In this document: positions 1-5,100 of the stretch, piece after piece
Layout of the letters: each line of letters begins with the position of its first letter
Position numbering within the stretch: the first letter of the stretch is position 1
DNA from: Escherichia coli
GTDB lineage: Bacteria > Pseudomonadota > Gammaproteobacteria > Enterobacterales > Enterobacteriaceae
Assembly: GCF_003334785.1 (NCBI RefSeq)
Contig: NZ_QOWV01000042.1
Length of the DNA: 5,682 nucleotides
Direction: 5' to 3' (one strand)
Notes under the pieces: generated by a model
What the model saw: only the letters and a program-made list of their open reading frames with translations
The model's database searches: none
Told to the model about the DNA's origin: nothing
Program-made: the position numbers and the translations under genes

Positions 1-68
1 GGTCATCGCCGAAACTGACGGTTTTCAGACTCTTGATCTCATCGTCCAGATAGCGGTTCAGCTCGAGG
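1..68. repeat. Partial copy of the same 75-bp repeat unit at the window start
   Basis: Positions 1-68 are near-identical to repeat units at 5163-5230. The array of copy A continues beyond the window edge. Confidence 0.85.
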
Positions 69-229
69 TGTTCATAATCTTCACTGACGCTAAAACTCTT
101 AACATTTTGTAGCATCTTATATTCGTACTTCAGCTTCTCTATTAACTCATTACTTAAATCATCAAGAGCATCATGGTCATATTTCGATGACATCAGATGC
201 GATTTTTTAATCATAAATCTGCCATCCAT
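1..229 (-). CDS. Acidic tandem-repeat protein, copy A, N-terminal part only (3' end beyond window start)
   Basis: ATG at 229-227 (minus) with SD AAGGAG at 241-236 and a 6-nt spacer, 13 nt after the stop of the upstream PIN-like gene. Hand translation of 229..2 is open throughout: MDGRFMIKKSHLMSSKYDHDALDDLSNELIEKLKYEYKMLQNVKSFSVSEDYEHLELNRYLDDEIKSLKTVSFGDD. The last residues are the first copy of the 25-aa repeat seen in full at 5101-5652. Not in the ORF track because it has no stop inside the window. Confidence 0.6.
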   Translation of the reverse strand, partial: MDGRFMIKKSHLMSSKYDHDALDDLSNELIEKLKYEYKMLQNVKSFSVSEDYEHLELNRYLDDEIKSLKTVSFGDD

Positions 230-242
230 ATGATACTCCTTC

Positions 243-1427
243 TTACTCTGTTATTGATGAAAGGATTGAGCTCATCTTCTGAATAGAAGATAACTTTCCT
301 TTCATTAGAAGTCTAATTTTAGCCATTATCTCAGGATCTGTCGCAGATTCTAGCTTTTTAGATAGACCAGCAATTTCTGCCTTTTCTCTTTTTATTCTGT
401 TTTCTAGGAGTGCTCGGTGTTCACTGTTGCTTGTGTTACTTCCAGCTCCATACCCATTCCCTGTTGAAATGTTGAGGTTTTCGGTGTTTATTTTAAGATC
501 GAATGCGTTGTTTATATTTAAGATTAGTTCTTTTGTGTTTATTACATCAAAAAATTGAACGCTTGAGTTATTTAGCATTTCCTCTCTTAATATAGCGTGA
601 ACGCCTTTGTTTTCTCTATTTTCTTTATCTCTACCAACTTTAAATATGAAGTCATCTTTTGCATCATTAGTGATTAGGAAAACGTTTTTCGCACCTGTTG
701 ATGCGGCATGCTCTAGAGTTTCTTTCCATATGTAGAAATCACCATAAGCTCTTTGATAAGTAATGCCGTCATAAGAGAATATATTGTCTGGCTTTCCTAC
801 CTTGTCTGCGTCACAGAATCCAGGGGGCGTTTTTAATTCATACCTTGATTTACATTCAGCATCTAATCCATTAATGTATTCTTGGTCCTTTTTTACGCCT
901 ATTTTTCCAGAGAATATGTTGTCAATCCATTCTCTATGTATGTCTTTTGTATTTAACTCATCAATTGATTCATTGAGTTTTCCATACATATCCTCTAGTC
1001 CTGAGTTTAATAAATCAATGGATTTTTTTATTAACTCAGATACTTGTCTGTTTAGCCCTTCGTAATGCCTTGCTTTGGAGTTGTTGCATTTTTCTAATAG
1101 TTTTGATGAATAAGATAATAAATCAACAACAGGAGATGTTGTTGTTGATATCAAGTGTTTCTGATCGTCGATAACCCCTAATCTTCTTCTCTGATACTCC
1201 AACGCAGTAAAATAAGGGAGATATATATTTTCTCTTATCTGTTCTATTGATTTCTTTATCGCAGATATTGTTTCCTGGTTGTTTCTATATAGGTCTAATA
1301 TGACATTGGTGTCAAAAACAAATAATGTATCATCTGCCCTGTATATATCAGGATTGTCCTTTATGTTGCCTGTATAAAATCCTTTAAACATATCCCTCAT
1401 CGACATAAAAAAGCCCCTATTATTCAT
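243..1427 (-). CDS. PIN-like (VapC-type) putative nuclease with a large internal insertion and a C-terminal coiled-coil tail
   Basis: Long minus-strand ORF (track 243..1493, stop TAA at 245-243). Contains FDTNVILDL (first PIN acidic motif), a conserved Glu in TALEYQ about 38 residues later, and LITNDAKDDF (the T-x-D-x-D-F motif typical of VapC/PIN) about 215 residues after the first Asp, implying an inserted domain. The track's first codon at 1493-1491 is TTG, not ATG. In-frame ATGs at 1472, 1427 and 1406 are alternatives; 1406 has a GGGG SD-like run 7 nt upstream. A perfect TTGACA on the minus strand at 1469-1464 could be a -35 element. The gene is strongly AT-rich compared with the plasmid backbone. 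Confidence 0.7.
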   Translation of the reverse strand: MNNRGFFMSMRDMFKGFYTGNIKDNPDIYRADDTLFVFDTNVILDLYRNNQETISAIKKSIEQIRENIYLPYFTALEYQRRRLGVIDDQKHLISTTTSPVVDLLSYSSKLLEKCNNSKARHYEGLNRQVSELIKKSIDLLNSGLEDMYGKLNESIDELNTKDIHREWIDNIFSGKIGVKKDQEYINGLDAECKSRYELKTPPGFCDADKVGKPDNIFSYDGITYQRAYGDFYIWKETLEHAASTGAKNVFLITNDAKDDFIFKVGRDKENRENKGVHAILREEMLNNSSVQFFDVINTKELILNINNAFDLKINTENLNISTGNGYGAGSNTSNSEHRALLENRIKREKAEIAGLSKKLESATDPEIMAKIRLLMKGKLSSIQKMSSILSSITE

Positions 1428-1501
1428 TTCTGTTTTGTTCTTTTCGTCAGTTGCTGACTCTTGTGTCAACATCAAAATCAATCGATCATGCAAATGATCT
1501 C

Positions 1502-1530
1502 TTGAGATTCCTTTTTTCTACGCGTAATCT
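1502..1530 (+). promoter_or_regulatory. RNA II (replication primer) promoter
   Basis: -35 TTGAGA at 1502-1507, 17-bp spacer, -10 TAATCT at 1525-1530. This matches the ColE1/pMB1 RNA II promoter arrangement. Confidence 0.8.
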
Positions 1531-1542
1531 TTCTTCCTGTAA

Positions 1543-1646
1543 ACGAAAAAACCACCCTGGCAGGTGGTCTTTTCGAAGGTTAGATAATCCTGGCAGATTC
1601 TCTAACCGTGGTAACAGTCTTGTGCGAGACATGTCACCAAATCCGT
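1543..1646 (-). ncRNA. RNA I, antisense copy-number control RNA
   Basis: Minus-strand promoter with -35 TTGAAG (complement of 1682-1677) and -10 TACACT (complement of 1658-1653). Predicted start is near 1646. Intrinsic terminator is the hairpin at 1551-1568 followed on the minus strand by a U-run (complement of 1545-1550). Length is about 100 nt, as expected for RNA I. Confidence 0.75.
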
Positions 1647-1652
1647 CCTTTC

Positions 1653-1682
1653 AGTGTAGCCTCACTCAGGCCACCACTTCAA
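1653..1682 (-). promoter_or_regulatory. RNA I promoter
   Basis: Same hexamers and position relative to RNA II as in pMB1/ColE1 (TTGAAG, 18-bp spacer, TACACT). Confidence 0.7.
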
Positions 1683-2049
1683 GAACTCTCGATACATCTC
1701 TCGCACATCCTGTTTACCAGTGGCCGTTGCCAATGGCGATTAGTCGTGTCTTTTCGGGTTGGACTCAAGACGATAGTTACCGGATAAGGCGCAGCGGTCG
1801 GACTGAACGGGGGGTTCGTGCATACAGTCCAGCTTGGAGCGAACTGCCTACCCGGAACTGAGTGTCAGGCGTGGAATGAGAAACCGCGGCCATAACAGCG
1901 GAATGACACCGGTAAACCGAAAGGCAGGAACAGGAGAGCGCACGAGGGAGCCACCAGGGGGAAACGCCTGGTATCTTTATAGTCCTGTCGGGTTTCGCCA
2001 CCTCTGACTTGAGCGTCGATTTTTGTGATGCTCGTCAGGGGGGCGGAGC

Positions 2050-2060
2050 CTATGGAAAAA
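2050..2060 (+). other. Origin of replication (RNA II to DNA transition, oriV)
   Basis: The motif gcggagcctatggaaaaa lies about 520 nt downstream of the RNA II start, corresponding to the ColE1 primer processing and DNA start point. Confidence 0.65.
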
Positions 2061-2299
2061 GCGCCTGCGGCGCGGCCTTTTTCGGGGTTTCCGTTTTTGC
2101 GCACATGTTCTTTCCCGGGTTATCCCCGGATTCTGTGGATAACTGTGTTACCGTTTTTGTGTGAGTCAGTACCGCTCGCCGCAGCCGAACGACCGAGCGT
2201 AGCGAGTCAGTGAGCGAGGAAGCGGAAGAGCGCCGGAAGCTACATTTTCTCCTTACGCATCTGTGCGGCATTTCACACCCGGCATGGTGCACTTTTCAT

Positions 2300-2400
2300 A
2301 CCATCCGCACTGATGCTGCATGAGTAAGCCAGTATACACTCCGCTATCGCTACGTGACTGGGTCATGGCTGCGCCCCGACACCCGCAAGGTCAACGGCCT
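2300..2400 (-). other. bom / oriT (basis of mobility) with nic region
   Basis: taagccagtatacactccgctatcgctacgtgactgggtcatggctgcgccccgacacccgc is near-identical to the pBR322/ColE1 bom region and lies between ori and rop as in those plasmids. The nick is expected on the minus strand within the complement of taagccag (2325-2332). Confidence 0.7.
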
Positions 2401-2477
2401 GACGCGCCCTGACGGGCTTGTCTGCTCCCGGCATCCGCTCACAGGCAAGCTGTGACCGTCTCCGGGAGCTGTATGTG

Positions 2478-2669
2478 TCAGAGGTTTTCACCGTCATCAC
2501 CGAAACGCGCGAGGCAGCTGCGGTAAAGCTCATCAGCGTGGTCGTGAAGCGATTCACAGATGTCTGCCTGTTCATCCGCGTCCAGTTCGTTGAGTTTCTC
2601 CAGCAGCGTTAATGTCTGGCTTCTGATAAAGCGGGCCATGTTAAGGGCGGTTTTTTCCTGTTTAGTCAC
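2478..2669 (-). CDS. rop: Rop/Rom, RNA I-RNA II pairing modulator
   Basis: 63-aa ORF MTKQEKTALNMARFIRSQTLTLLEKLNELDADEQADICESLHDHADELYRSCLARFGDDGENL, recognised as the Rop protein. It converges on RNA II, as in pBR322. Confidence 0.95.
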   Translation of the reverse strand: MTKQEKTALNMARFIRSQTLTLLEKLNELDADEQADICESLHDHADELYRSCLARFGDDGENL

Positions 2670-2701
2670 TGATGCCTCCGTGTAAGGGGGGATTTCTGTT
2701 C

Positions 2702-3058
2702 ATGGGGGTAATGATACCGATGAAACGCGAGAGGATGCTCACCATACGGGTTACTGATGATGAACATGCCCGGTTACTGGAACGCTGTGAGGGTAAACAA
2801 CTGGCGGTATGGATGCGGCGGGTCTGCCTGGGTGAGCCGGTTGCCCGTTCCGGGAAGCTGCCGACACTGGCACCGCCGTTACTGCGCCAGCTGGCTGCCA
2901 TCGGGAATAACCTGAATCAGACAGCGAGGAAGGTGAACAGCGGGCAGTGGTCTTCCGGCGACCGGGTTCAGGTGGTGGCCGCACTGATGGCCATCGAGAG
3001 AGAGTTGCGCAGCTTACGGCAGGTCGTCAGGGGACAGGGAGCGCGGGATGATAGTTAA
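2702..3058 (+). CDS. mbeC: Mobilization accessory protein MbeC (MobC family, ribbon-helix-helix)
   Basis: Translation ...MLTIRVTDDEHARLLERCEGKQLAVWMRRVCLGEPVARSGKLPTLAPPLLRQLAAIGNNLNQTARKVNSGQWS... matches the ColE1-family MbeC fold. The 5' part is colinear with the mob remnant retained in pBR322. Start is uncertain among ATGs at 2702, 2711, 2720 and 2735; 2702 has an AAGGGGGG run about 10 nt upstream. The stop overlaps the mbeA start. Confidence 0.8.
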   Translation: MGVMIPMKRERMLTIRVTDDEHARLLERCEGKQLAVWMRRVCLGEPVARSGKLPTLAPPLLRQLAAIGNNLNQTARKVNSGQWSSGDRVQVVAALMAIERELRSLRQVVRGQGARDDS

Positions 3059-3424
3059 GTTTCATGCCAGGGGGAAAGGTGGTGGCAGTGGTCCGGTTGA
3101 TTACCTTCTGGGAAGGGAGCGTAACCGGGAAGGTGCAACGGTACTGCAGGGTAACCCGGAAGAAGTCCGGGAACTCATCGATGCCACGCCATTTGCGAAG
3201 AAATATACGTCCGGTGTTCTGTCGTTCGCGGAGAAGGAACTGCCGCCGGGAGGACGTGAAAAAGTTATGGCGAGCTTTGAGCGTGTACTGATGCCCGGTC
3301 TTGAAAAAAATCAGTACAGCATCCTGTGGGTGGAGCACCAGGACAAGGGACGGCTTGAGCTGAATTTTGTCATTCCGAACATGGAGCTACAGAGCGGAAA
3401 ACGCCTCCAGCCGTACTACGACCG

Positions 3425-3476
3425 GGCAGACAGGCCGAGAATTGATGCCTGGCAGACAGGCCGAGAATTGATGCCT
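3425..3476. repeat. Exact 26-bp tandem duplication inside mbeA
   Basis: Two perfect adjacent copies of ggcagacaggccgagaattgatgcct, followed by a further partial copy ggcagac. 26 is not a multiple of 3, so the duplication shifts the frame. Confidence 0.9.
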
Positions 3477-3761
3477 GGCAGACGCTGGTTAATCACCATT
3501 ACGGGCTGCATGACCCCAACGCCCCGGAGAACCGCCGGATACTGACTCTCTCTGATAACCTGCCGGAAACGAAACAGGCGCTTGCAGAGAGCGTCACACG
3601 CGGGATAGACGCTCTTTATCATGTCGGGGAGATAAAAGGCCGTCAGGATGTGATTCAGGCGCTCACAGAGGCAGGGCTTGAAGTGGTCAGGGTGACGCGA
3701 AGCAGTATCAGCATTGCAGACCCGAACGGTGGGAAGAATATCAGGCTGAAAGGAGCATTTT

Positions 3762-4292
3762 ATGAGCAATCTTTTACAGACGGGCGCGGAGTTCGAGAAA
3801 AAGCTGAAAGAGAGAGCCGAATCTACAGAGACAATGCTGAACGACGAGTTCAGGAAGCTCGAAGAATCTGTAAACAGGGAGCTGACCTCAAACGAATCTT
3901 TAATCAGGAACGCTATCAACGACCATACAGCAGCCCTGAAAGAACTTCTGGAGAGGTATCAGAAAACGACCGTCAGCACGATGGACACACACTGGCAAAC
4001 CGTGCTGAAAATGAGCGTGAAACGCTGGCTGTGGCTGATTATCGTCTCAGTACTGATGTTTGCCACGACCGGGAGTCTGCTGTGGTACCAGGGCATGAAG
4101 ATAAACGAGAATATGAATATTCTCCGCGAGCAGAAAGAGAGTCTGGAGAAGCTGAACGCGAAGACATGGGGCGTGCGTTATCACGAGGACAGCAACGGAC
4201 GTTTTCTGGTGTTGCCGAAGGGGATGAAAGCCGAAACGAACTGGACGAAGGACAACGGCAAACTGAACGCAGTGAGACTGGTGCAGGAGTGA
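3762..4292 (+). CDS. mbeB: Mobilization protein MbeB (nested within mbeA in an alternative frame)
   Basis: 176-aa ORF starting MSNLLQTGAEFEKKLKERAES with a hydrophobic segment WLWLIIVSVLMFATTGSLLW. RBS AGGAG is 6 nt upstream of the ATG. Overlapping arrangement inside mbeA is as in ColE1. Confidence 0.8.
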   Translation: MSNLLQTGAEFEKKLKERAESTETMLNDEFRKLEESVNRELTSNESLIRNAINDHTAALKELLERYQKTTVSTMDTHWQTVLKMSVKRWLWLIIVSVLMFATTGSLLWYQGMKINENMNILREQKESLEKLNAKTWGVRYHEDSNGRFLVLPKGMKAETNWTKDNGKLNAVRLVQE

Positions 4293-4298
4293 CAGAGC

Positions 4299-4532
4299 AT
4301 GACGGAGCTGGAAAGACATTTGCTGAACGCCTTAGAGCAACTGCAACAGGACTATATGCAGCGGCTGAACGAATGGGAGAGCGCCTTCGTGGAATTGCAG
4401 AAAATGTTTTCGCTTACGCAACGGGACAACGCGATGCTGAACGAGCGGGTCATGCAGTTGAGTCAGCAGGTGCAGCACTTGAGCGAGCGGACAGAACGCT
4501 TGAGCCAGTTATACAGCGAGAACAGGAGATAA
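4299..4532 (+). CDS. mbeD: Mobilization protein MbeD (nested within mbeA)
   Basis: 77-aa ORF MTELERHLLNALEQLQQDYMQRLNEWESAFVELQ..., predicted coiled coil. AGGAG lies 9 nt upstream of the ATG. Position immediately after mbeB is as in ColE1. Confidence 0.7.
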   Translation: MTELERHLLNALEQLQQDYMQRLNEWESAFVELQKMFSLTQRDNAMLNERVMQLSQQVQHLSERTERLSQLYSENRR

Positions 4533-4632
4533 GGGACGAACGGCTGATACAGGAGCGCGAACATGCGTTATCCCTGGAGCGTGAGCGCCAGCCGGAAATA
4601 CAGGAACGCACACTGGATGGCCCTTCGCTGGG

Positions 4633-4839
4633 ATGGTAATCAGAGACAGGCTAAAATGTTGTCAGCGCGTTTCCGGTGCATTTTTTGGGATAATGGTTGG
4701 TTCGGGGGCACCGGGAACGCGCTTCAGTCAGACCTTGCTGAAAACACAGGAACGCGTTAAAACGCATACGGGCGCGATTCTGGTGTATCTTTTGTTGCTG
4801 TGTTTTGCCGTTATTGCCAGATCGCGCTCATTCCCCTGA
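4633..4839 (+). CDS. Small hydrophobic protein, possible MbeE
   Basis: 68-aa ORF whose ATG overlaps the mbeA stop (ATGGTAA) and which has a hydrophobic stretch ILVYLLLLCFAVIA. No convincing SD. Assignment is by position only. Confidence 0.3.
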   Translation: MVIRDRLKCCQRVSGAFFGIMVGSGAPGTRFSQTLLKTQERVKTHTGAILVYLLLLCFAVIARSRSFP

Positions 4840-4879
4840 ATTTCTGTTTTTCCGCTCCGGTTCCGTCTTCTGCCTTTCC

Positions 4880-5090
4880 GAAAGTATGAAAAAAATCCGT
4901 TTCAGCAGTCTCTGGCTGGAAATTCCTGCGTGATTCACATGGCTGCATAGCTATGCATGTGGTTAAAATTTACCGGGTGCGATCGCGGCAGTTTTTCGGG
5001 TGGTTTGTTGCCATTTTTACCTGTCTGCTGCCGTGATCGCACCGAACGCGTTTCAGTGGTGCGTACAATGGGATGTTATGGTAAATGGCT
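4880..5090. other. cer-like XerCD multimer-resolution site with upstream accessory sequences
   Basis: Core ggtgcgtacaa-tgggatg-ttatggtaaat at 5058-5086 resembles the ColE1 cer XerC arm, central region and XerD arm. Upstream sequence gcggcagtttttcgggtggtttgttgccatttttacctgtctgctgccgtgatcgc and the palindrome tgcatagctatgca resemble the cer accessory and ArgR-box region. Confidence 0.7.
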
Positions 5091-5100
5091 CTCGCTAGTT

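Follow-up and report, generated by a model that had tools for sequence, protein, structure and literature searches.

An AT-rich operon of a predicted PIN_8 nuclease and a tandem-repeat protein on a mosaic ColE1-family plasmid of Escherichia coli, and the reading of its compositional step

The stretch of DNA analysed (5,682 nucleotides, hereafter the window) is, judged from its sequence, a mosaic ColE1-family plasmid and essentially the Escherichia coli ECOR10 plasmid RCS83_pIII. It combines an AT-rich cargo with a backbone of higher GC content. The step between the two probably marks the edge of an accessory module, whose AT-richness would be a standing property and no record of the source organism. 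The 54%-GC part, comprising the RNAI/RNAII origin, rop, the mob genes and a putative cer site, has the composition of enterobacterial hosts. The cargo slot, which is bounded by the cer core and by the RNAII promoter (approximately 1491), houses an operon for a predicted PIN_8 nuclease and an acidic tandem-repeat protein. The compositional finding itself is ordinary: AT-rich cargo on a host-like backbone is the norm for the ColE1 family, and the plasmid was already present in databases. The lesson concerns method. A GC step on a small plasmid flags accessory DNA and cannot serve to recognise the donor. PIN_8 genes lie below their surroundings in hosts of 37% to 66% GC, and the edge of a step can fall within a gene.

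Plasmid pIII (NZ_LT985292.1, 5912 bp) is 99.9% identical to the window over 1543-5621 and 100% identical over 200-1500. Both have the RNAI/RNAII origin, rop, mobC-mbeA-mbeB-mbeD and the putative cer site in common, and in both the PIN_8 and repeat-protein cargo lies between this site and the RNAII promoter. They differ in the repeat array, which has 12 units in pIII and 6.6 + 1 in the window, and in an 85-bp diverged tail that is absent from pIII. The backbone had been called near-identical to the ColE1/pMB1 lineage. It is closely related rather: over approximately 1491-5086, at least 5000 ColE1-type records share 91-93% identity with it, and identity reaches 99.9% with pIII. Classical colicin E1 plasmids have a backbone about 91% identical and an unrelated cargo. 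RNAI is located at 1543..1645 on the minus strand (Rfam RF00106, 76.5 bits; gathering score 47). This match and an origin 91-93% identical to ColE1-type plasmids identify a ColE1 replicon with an antisense RNAI/RNAII primer. Reading frames for Rop (2478-2669), MobC (2735-3058), the relaxase MbeA (from 3048, typed MOBP), MbeB (3762-4292) and MbeD (4299-4532) follow the annotation of the 99.9% identical record, so that Rop and a mobilization region of MOBP/HEN type (mobC/mbeA/mbeB/mbeD), both characteristic of the ColE1 family, are present. In the window, a 26-bp duplication shifts the frame of the relaxase gene. On the right, the common backbone ends with a putative cer-type XerC/XerD core at 5058..5086 (plus strand), GGTGCGTACAA-TGGGATG-TTATGGTAAAT. 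It is presumably cer, given the match of this core-like sequence to the published core.

The break between cargo and backbone described in the earlier note is confirmed by measurement. Positions 1-1500 have 34.6% GC and positions 1501-5100 have 54.0% (two-proportion test, chi2 159, p 2e-36); another two-proportion test on the break yielded chi2 131 and p 2e-30. GC content and codon usage also differ between the PIN reading frame at 243-1427 (33.8% GC) and the backbone genes at 2478-4639 (54.4%), and the observation therefore holds. A maximum-likelihood segmentation with two breakpoints on the circle separated a high-GC arc at 1552..5627 (53.8%), which contains the origin, rop, mobC/mbeA/mbeB/mbeD, cer and the repeat array, from a low-GC arc at 5628-1551 (34.2%), with a log-likelihood gain of 89. 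The breakpoint on the origin side (1551) falls at the 3' end of RNAI, and the PIN operon lies directly downstream and co-directional with RNAI. GC rises gradually on this side over about 300 bp, from 0.36 at 1460-1539 via 0.45 across RNAI to 0.55 by 1740.

A/T-rich codons dominate the PIN gene, as had been read by eye from an AT-rich run that was found again at 490-527. GC at the three codon positions is 0.39/0.32/0.31 and GC3s is 0.29, compared with a GC3s of 0.58-0.75 across rop, mobC, the 5' part of mbeA, mbeB and mbeD. Synonymous codon usage is heterogeneous (chi2 194, df 41, p 8e-22): AGA encodes 14 of 20 arginines and ATA 23 of 36 isoleucines, and CTG is used for none of the 37 leucines. 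The break could in principle be a by-product of a Lys/Asn/Ile-rich protein, or chance, and not a different nucleotide regime; the share of FYMINK residues is 37% in the PIN protein and 14-29% in the mob proteins. However, it is the synonymous sites that differ most, which rules out the protein-composition reading. The non-coding leader at 1407-1490 is AT-rich too, and p values of 1e-30 to 1e-36 argue against chance. An origin in protein composition or chance is thus exceedingly improbable.

The repeat gene had been described as intermediate in composition. It is bimodal instead: the unique 5' part (59..229, minus strand, 57 codons) has 34.5% GC and a GC3 of 0.40, and the 75-bp repeat unit has 53% GC. 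The break on the cer side is therefore located inside the partner gene and not at the junction of cargo and backbone. Nineteen of the 25 third positions in the unit are G or C (Fisher's test with one unit counted: p 7e-6 in comparison with PIN, p 0.004 in comparison with the unique part). The array part of the partner at 5101..5652 (minus strand) forms a 183-amino-acid reading frame in the window with 48-53% GC and a GC3 of 0.67, and Tandem Repeats Finder (TRF) reported a 75-bp unit x 6.6 at 5125-5621. The first 75-bp unit (1..58, minus strand) is cut by the start of the window and is continuous with the 12-unit array in pIII. An array that drifted or was rebuilt to 48-53% GC would have placed one edge of the break inside the partner gene.

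The AT-rich tail at 5598..5682 (minus strand) is a diverged copy of 58-145 that aligns without gaps at approximately 68% identity and contains an in-frame stop. It was not found in pIII, the Klebsiella variicola plasmid described below, FDAARGOS_1248, L017/L018 or the 92% and 87% relatives, and an exact 31-mer of it was not found in metagenome contigs. An assembly chimera, with an AT-rich contig joined to a ColE1 backbone, would agree with a tail seen nowhere else and with an end/start junction of the window that sits in a collapsed repeat array. Against it, both junctions (approximately 1491 and 5086-5100) recur in pIII, in the K. variicola plasmid and in two metagenome contigs, and a chimera is very improbable. 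The interior of the array is the only part of the assembly under suspicion.

The cargo is a two-gene operon, in which a PIN_8 nuclease gene precedes the gene of an acidic 25-residue tandem-repeat protein. The predicted nuclease gene (PF18476, Pfam E 1.4e-41) extends over 243..1406 on the minus strand and encodes 387 amino acids at 33.8% GC. The profile match spans model positions 1-218 of 227, and phrog_9788 was matched with E 2e-45. Longer in-frame starts exist at 1427, 1472 (PGAP) and 1493. For the start at 1406, homology with all relatives begins at 1407/1406, the proteins of the relatives start with MSM(R/K)..FKGFYT, and a Shine-Dalgarno sequence AGGGG lies 7 nt upstream. The cargo leader at 1407..1490 (minus strand) reaches from the PIN start to the first backbone base and is not conserved in relatives. 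A scan of 1407-1540 for the sigma70 consensus yielded no promoter match for the operon. D32, E70, D248 and D252 are invariant in 11 PIN sequences down to 38% identity and are putative active-site acidic residues of the PIN fold. An AF2 model of the protein is alpha/beta with a pLDDT of 78. Foldseek of this model against the PDB gave no significant match (best E 0.1), a PDB sequence search gave no match, NCBIfam contained no family for the protein, and PADLOC-DB 2.0 no defence-model match at E <= 0.1.

PIN-like nucleases related to PIN_8/DUF4935 belong to a VapC-like structural group and are listed with unknown function (Matelska et al., 2017, PMC5499597). The PIN protein of the window matches PIN_8 strongly and PIN_12 more weakly, keeps the acidic residues in the motifs FDTN, ALEY and TNDAKDD, and has the long helical insertion after the second strand. 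DUF4935 genes are mostly monocistronic (PMC5499597). In contrast, every PIN gene in the clade of the window is followed by a tandem-repeat gene as its partner, and the PIN protein of this clade has a coiled coil at its C-terminal end.

The ATG of the partner at 229 lies 13 nt past the PIN stop codon. All relatives of 56-92% identity have a repeat-protein gene downstream at this same distance. The repeat units of the window, ELNRYLDDEI(K/M)SLKTVSFGDDHEL, are acidic and 25 residues long; units across relatives are likewise acidic and comprise 25-29 residues. The array is variable, with copy number differing among near-identical plasmids and unit sequence and length differing among relatives, and the window array has a homologue in the repeat partner found in the 74% relative (BLASTP E 8e-34). 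A Pfam search with the partner gave nothing below E 0.28, a search of a 5.8-billion-protein set for homologues gave no scoring match, and in PADLOC-DB 2.0 two weak matches were obtained, neither with a significant stretch. An NCBIfam match to 'phage head-tail joining' (47.7 bits) has no single significant stretch, and none of the many small PHROG matches has one; these were taken for weak matches that add up across 12 repeats, and rejected. PDB matches were to designed helical-repeat proteins only and were not informative. No fold is claimed for the partner, since the single-sequence model is unreliable (pLDDT 51).

The operon resembles type II toxin-antitoxin systems of the VapBC type in that it is carried by a small plasmid and that a second gene follows the PIN-fold gene closely, at 13 nt. 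However, the partner is located downstream and not upstream, and consists of 260-346 amino acids of acidic repeats where VapBC has a small DNA-binding antitoxin. No conserved reading frame was found upstream of PIN, and the coupled partner had no DNA-binding domain match in Pfam or NCBIfam. Tentatively, the PIN_8 gene and the repeat partner may form an undescribed two-gene plasmid module, either for anti-phage defence or abortive infection or for addiction. The nuclease would be sensed for or inhibited by the repeat protein, acting as its sensor or inhibitor, and the array would turn over rapidly by expansion, contraction and replacement of units. If true, the compositional step within the operon would be the footprint of a fast-turnover array coupled with a nuclease gene that evolves slowly and is deliberately AT-rich. 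A by-product of the analysis is an uncharacterised operon, so far confined to small enterobacterial plasmids, as a candidate defence or stability module.

The earlier note derived the cargo from a low-GC donor. The analysis supports one part of this, namely that the AT-rich block is an accessory cargo carried by a ColE1 backbone of host-like composition; it does not support the break as a pointer to a donor. Composition and codon usage of the cargo are distinct from the recipient replicon, as in a foreign island. The same contrast is found with other cargo: eight of eight other plasmids with the same backbone (54% GC), which were the top of one BLAST list and not a random sample, carry cargo of 32-43% GC, whatever it encodes. 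Colicins, restriction-modification systems or Abi genes occupy the slot in other plasmids. Counting the window, cargo lies 11-22 GC points under the backbone in all nine. ColE1 plasmids have been described as gene-capture platforms, with origin and relaxase matching the GC content of the host (PMC5864857; PMC8683028); the origin has 52.8% and the relaxase 57.7%, compared with 53.0% in Enterobacterales (PMC8683028). As AT-rich cargo is the rule in the ColE1 family, a drop in GC does not identify a low-GC donor.

The PIN_8 genes behave likewise. They are GC-poorer than their surroundings in 14 of 14 non-redundant contexts, low-GC hosts included (sign test p ~1e-4), for example in a Proteus plasmid (27.9 vs 41.2%), in Commensalibacter (29.0 vs 37.6%) and in Stenotrophomonas (53.6 vs 65.7%). 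Genes of this kind are low in GC wherever they occur, and the low GC is no donor fingerprint. AT-richness in every cargo and every PIN_8 context examined marks mobile accessory DNA and is silent on the source organism. In Enterobacteria, plasmids and accessory genes have a higher AT content than the chromosomes of their hosts. The window agrees with such AT-rich acquired (xenogeneic) and accessory DNA in that the cargo and the PIN_8 genes lie below backbone or flanks; it differs in that the step falls within one operon and even one gene.

The search for a donor lineage of the cargo proteins that the earlier note had called for was run, and no donor genome was found. A near-identical copy in a composition-matched lineage was not detected among GTDB representatives, IMG/VR and metagenome contigs. 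The scan of 100,044 species-representative genomes, which used an alignment of 11 PIN sequences, found a homologue in Commensalibacter communis only, 38% identical. IMG/VR viral contigs contained no PIN homologue, and in metagenome contigs the plasmid type of the window was found twice, along with one relative of 74% identity.

A fairly recent import of the PIN/repeat cargo from a low-GC lineage, such as Morganellaceae (Proteus) or their Rep3 plasmids, with the composition unameliorated, is unlikely. It has several observations in its favour. The closest named PIN homologue (64% amino acid identity) is located on a Rep3/MobA plasmid of Proteus mirabilis with 38.8% GC, and other relatives are found on Rep3 plasmids of 37-39% GC, most relatives being metagenome or read-archive contigs. 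The GC content of the window PIN gene (33.8%) is near that of the Rep3 genes on those plasmids (34-37%), the use of AGA, ATA and CTA and the lack of CTG are typical of AT-rich genomes, and the cargo is rare in E. coli, with 1 of 5426 complete genomes and 3 of 72,556 plasmids. However, PIN genes are still 10-13 points under the rest of the low-GC plasmids (27-31% vs 40-41%), no relative of more than 92% identity occurs outside ColE1-type contexts, and the 87%, 76% and 69% relatives adjoin RNAI as well. Nothing among the GTDB representatives is closer than the 38% homologue, every other cargo in the same backbone is AT-rich, and the repeat array of the same operon has 48-53% GC.

Under the preferred reading of the step as a module edge, AT-richness would have persisted while the module diverged alongside small plasmids of ColE1 and Rep3 type. 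The PIN operon adjoins RNAI in L005/L006, L015 and L020, and ColE1-type replicons with an origin only 70-72% identical to that of the window carry the same operon, still at 31% GC. It may be deduced that the module has long resided alongside ColE1 replicons. Between L005 and the window, nucleotide identity is 70-72% in the origin and 71% in PIN. This similarity is no proof of co-divergence, since the slot is common to all ColE1 plasmids and independent insertions would look alike.

AT-richness might also be actively maintained, with silencing of the H-NS type and slowed translation at rare codons (AGA, ATA, CTA) together holding a potentially toxic nuclease low on a multicopy plasmid. Such maintenance, which is compatible with the module-edge reading and would account for the persistence, is a possible but doubtful explanation. 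Silencers of the H-NS type bind AT-rich DNA, and H-NS has an established role on such DNA when it is acquired. In nine diverged modules with backbones of 38-54% GC, the GC3 of PIN stays at 0.19-0.33, while that of the adjacent array spans 0.28-0.81, and codons rare in E. coli are in strong surplus in PIN. However, a mutational bias towards AT, combined with weak selection on accessory genes, would produce this pattern too, and the shift affects all codon positions, not the third alone.

Module exchange may proceed by XerCD recombination at cer on one side and a second crossover near the origin. A plasmid of K. variicola is approximately 100% identical to the window from the central region of cer through cargo and origin to about 2040-2066, and 45-80% identical beyond. 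The start of this block in the cer central region suggests Xer-mediated exchange, on the evidence of one junction. For qnrB19 plasmids, a model of modular exchange by recombination at Xer sites and at oriT has been put forward (Tran et al., 2012, as cited in PMC8683028). The block agrees with this model in that one of its boundaries lies in the central region of cer. It differs in its second boundary, which lies near the replication origin (approximately 2040-2066) and not at oriT, and in the exchanged unit, which is the origin together with the cargo. The clean cer-core junction is a further by-product and indicates how blocks of cargo and origin may move between ColE1 plasmids. In the K. variicola core, the XerD arm is identical to that of the window and the XerC arm is different. 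Homology common to thousands of ColE1 plasmids ends at approximately 1491 and at 5086; for most other plasmids it stops where the XerD arm ends, with its last base at 5086.

The window (5682 bp) is a small plasmid of the ColE1 family. It matches plasmid RCS83_pIII from E. coli ECOR10 (NZ_LT985292.1, 5912 bp; pIII) with 99.9% identity over 1543-5621 and 100% over 200-1500. At least 5000 further ColE1-type plasmids match at 91-93%, limited to about 1491-5086. The near-identical record is annotated with Rop, MobC, a truncated relaxase, MbeB and MbeD, and RNAI was located with Rfam at 1543-1645 (minus strand). The motif GGTGCGTACAA-TGGGATG-TTATGGTAAAT at 5058-5086 is taken to be a cer-like XerC/XerD core, from its match to the published core sequence. 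Based on the limits of ColE1 homology, RNAI, the mob annotation and the cer-like core, the shared backbone spans 1491-5086, and the remainder of the circle, 5087 through to 1490, is cargo.

The GC content is 34.6% at 1-1500 and 33.8% in the ORF of the PIN_8 nuclease gene (PIN), versus 54.4% at 2478-4639 and 54.0% at 1501-5100 (chi2 131-159, p 2e-30 to 2e-36). The best circular segmentation with two breakpoints separates 1552-5627 (53.8% GC) from 5628-1551 (34.2%). G+C at synonymous third codon positions is 0.29 in PIN and 0.58-0.75 in rop, mobC, the 5' part of mbeA, mbeB and mbeD; synonymous codon usage is heterogeneous between PIN and the backbone genes (chi2 194, df 41, p 8e-22). PIN uses AGA for 14 of 20 arginines, ATA for 23 of 36 isoleucines and CTG for none of 37 leucines. 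Since 243-1427 and 2478-4639 thus differ in GC and codon usage, the sharp break between cargo and backbone described in the earlier note is real. Amino-acid composition as its sole cause is ruled out, because PIN and backbone differ most at synonymous sites.

On the ori side, GC rises from 0.36 (1460-1539) to 0.45 across RNAI and 0.55 by 1740, and the likelihood breakpoint (1551) coincides with the 3' end of RNAI. At the cer edge, the cargo/backbone junction (5087-5100) shows no GC step; GC changes within the second cargo gene, the partner. Its unique 5' part (229-59) has 34.5% GC and a third-position G+C (GC3) of 0.40, indistinct from PIN (p 0.13). The 75-bp repeat unit has 53% GC and a GC3 of 19/25, which, counting one unit and not the whole array, is distinct from both PIN (p 7e-6) and the unique part (p 0.004). 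Array composition mirrors that of one unit, because a single short unit was amplified. The "intermediate" composition ascribed to the repeat gene is therefore an average of two regimes.

PIN, the first cargo gene, is located at 243-1406 on the minus strand and encodes 387 aa (Pfam E 1.4e-41; phrog_9788). Translation likely starts at ATG 1406 and not at 1427 or at 1472 (the start given by PGAP), because 1406/1407 is where homology to all relatives sets in, their proteins have the equivalent Met as first residue and AGGGG precedes this ATG. Residues D32, E70, D248 and D252 are invariant among homologues down to 38% identity. The AF2 model (pLDDT 78) shows an alpha/beta fold, a long inserted helical segment and a coiled coil at the C terminus. 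The function of PIN_8 is given as unknown by Matelska et al. (PMC5499597). The operon lies directly 3' of RNAI and co-directional with it (upstream interval 1407-1645, minus strand), an order kept in the related loci L005, L006, L015 and L020. A scan of the 84-bp leader upstream of PIN detected no sigma70 consensus promoter, and expression by read-through from RNAI is possible.

The partner gene starts at ATG 229, 13 nt past the PIN stop codon. In pIII its product has 346 aa, comprising 57 unique residues and twelve acidic 25-residue units ELNRYLDDEI(K/M)SLKTVSFGDDHEL, and it received no assignment in Pfam, NCBIfam or PADLOC. Copy number differs among near-identical plasmids, with 6.6 + 1 units in the window (5125-5621), 12 in pIII and about 12 in the metagenome contig L017 (about 1940-2830); in the compared locus L001 the array spans 3559-4599. 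Many assemblies (L002, L003, L004, L007, L014, L015) end inside the array. The last 85 bases of the window (5598-5682) repeat 58-145 without gaps at about 68% identity and contain an in-frame TAG. When the window is read as a circle, the ORF from ATG 229 ends two codons beyond the end/start junction, and the repeats fall in a separate 183-aa ORF starting at TTG 5652. No relative carried this tail, nor did the metagenome scan detect it; it arose either as an assembly artefact where the array collapsed or by genuine recombination. Long ORFs antisense to the array (173 aa at 5161-5682, plus strand; 287 aa in pIII; 248 aa at 2062-2808, minus strand, in locus L019) are not counted as genes, because amplification of a stop-free unit is expected to yield one by chance.

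PIN relatives at 56-92% identity all reside on short contigs or small plasmids. Each has a partner gene 13-14 nt downstream, starting M(N/S)D.SF.. or MDGRF.., followed by acidic tandem repeats. The units vary in sequence and length (75 bp in the window type and in the 56% relative, 87 bp in the 74% relative). The window-type partner is clearly homologous to that of the 74% relative (E 8e-34) and weakly matched by that of the 56% relative (E 0.002). The operon occurs on ColE1-type backbones, where RNAI immediately precedes PIN and points the same way (L005/L006, L015, L020), and on Rep3/MobA-type backbones (L004, L007, L009/L010), one of them a Proteus mirabilis plasmid. No repeat partner accompanies the more distant PIN_8 homologues, with identities of 40% or below. 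The cargo is scarce, being found in 3 of 72,556 PLSDB plasmids and 1 of 5426 complete E. coli genomes.

Low GC is shared by other cargoes. In the eight other plasmids with the window backbone, the best of the match list, the slot holds a cytosine methyltransferase, CfrBI restriction-modification, colicins E1, K and Z-like, AbiEii + PP2C, or hypothetical proteins; non-backbone DNA has 32-43% GC versus 54% in all eight. PIN_8 genes lie below the rest of their locus in all 14 non-redundant contexts, e.g. a Proteus plasmid (27.9 vs 41.2% GC), a Commensalibacter chromosome (29.0 vs 37.6), V. vulnificus (34.7 vs 40.0), Stenotrophomonas (53.6 vs 65.7), Psychrobacter (34.1 vs 38.6) and K. pneumoniae (38.6 vs 46.5). 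L005, whose PIN has 30.6% GC, shares 70-72% nucleotide identity with the window in ori and 71% in PIN. Across nine modules, PIN GC3 is 0.19-0.33, and array GC3 ranges from 0.28 (Rep3 plasmid L009) to 0.81 (L005). The low cargo GC thus appears to have outlasted long residence on replicons of 50-54% GC. A scan of 100,044 species representatives for a donor returned only a Commensalibacter gene at 38% identity, IMG/VR held no PIN homologues, and the metagenome scan yielded two copies of the window plasmid type and one 74% relative. Given the AT-rich cargo in all eight plasmids, the position of PIN_8 below its flanks, the rarity of the cargo and these scans, low GC marks the block as mobile accessory DNA without naming a donor. 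Of the earlier proposal, cargo on a shuttle plasmid stands, and an identifiable low-GC donor does not; a Morganellaceae-type origin is possible. Candidate causes of AT-richness are an AT mutational bias on accessory genes under weak selection, silencing of AT-rich DNA by H-NS, and rare codons that would throttle a nuclease which may be toxic and is encoded on a multicopy plasmid. Both the phenomenon of AT-rich cargo and the window plasmid are already known; the side leads are the uncharacterised operon of PIN_8 and repeat gene, and the cer-core junction of a block shared with a K. variicola plasmid.

The operon may tentatively be read as a stability or defence module, because a tight coupling of PIN to a variable acidic repeat protein is kept on small plasmids. 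No PADLOC model matched the operon. A VapBC module was rejected, since the second gene of the operon is a large one located downstream and lacks a DNA-binding domain. On the E. hormaechei plasmid pKM98_p3 (NZ_CP126866.1, 1-8000), a distant PIN_8 homologue (32% identity) has an Abi family gene on one side and DGQHR-domain/PAPS-reductase genes on the other. This neighbourhood resembles a defence island, which suggests a role in stability or defence.

The K. variicola plasmid NZ_CP044052.1 (L003; junction about 5020-5060) and the window share a block of about 100% identity, which starts in the central region of the cer core, takes in the repeat gene, PIN, RNAI/RNAII and ori, and ends at about 2040-2066; past that point, identity is 45-80%. 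At the junction its XerC arm reads GGTGCGGGCAA versus GGTGCGTACAA in the window; the XerD arm and all downstream sequence are identical. Such a pattern would be expected if two plasmids had crossed over through XerCD, and it agrees with the proposal, attributed in PMC8683028 to Tran et al. (2012), that Xer and oriT sites are where small ColE1-like plasmids undergo reshuffling. XerCD recombination at cer would swap the mob region and leave ori with the cargo; as the shared block extends from the cer core to near ori, cargo and ori would move together, the mob region being the exchanged part.

In the metagenome contig L018 (QZMB01000834.1, 6292-7024), two RNAI copies about 5.2 kb apart are followed by an sraL sRNA match; the contig looks like the window plasmid in an over-extended or chimeric assembly. 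The mbeA relaxase of the window is frameshifted by a 26-bp tandem duplication (2.3 copies, 3425-3483), leaving a product of 165 aa. The duplication is also present in pIII, while L017, L018 and pRHB38-C24_6 carry a single copy. Removing one copy from the sequence restores a 521-aa ORF (3048-4639), and because of the frameshift the plasmid may be unable to mobilise itself.
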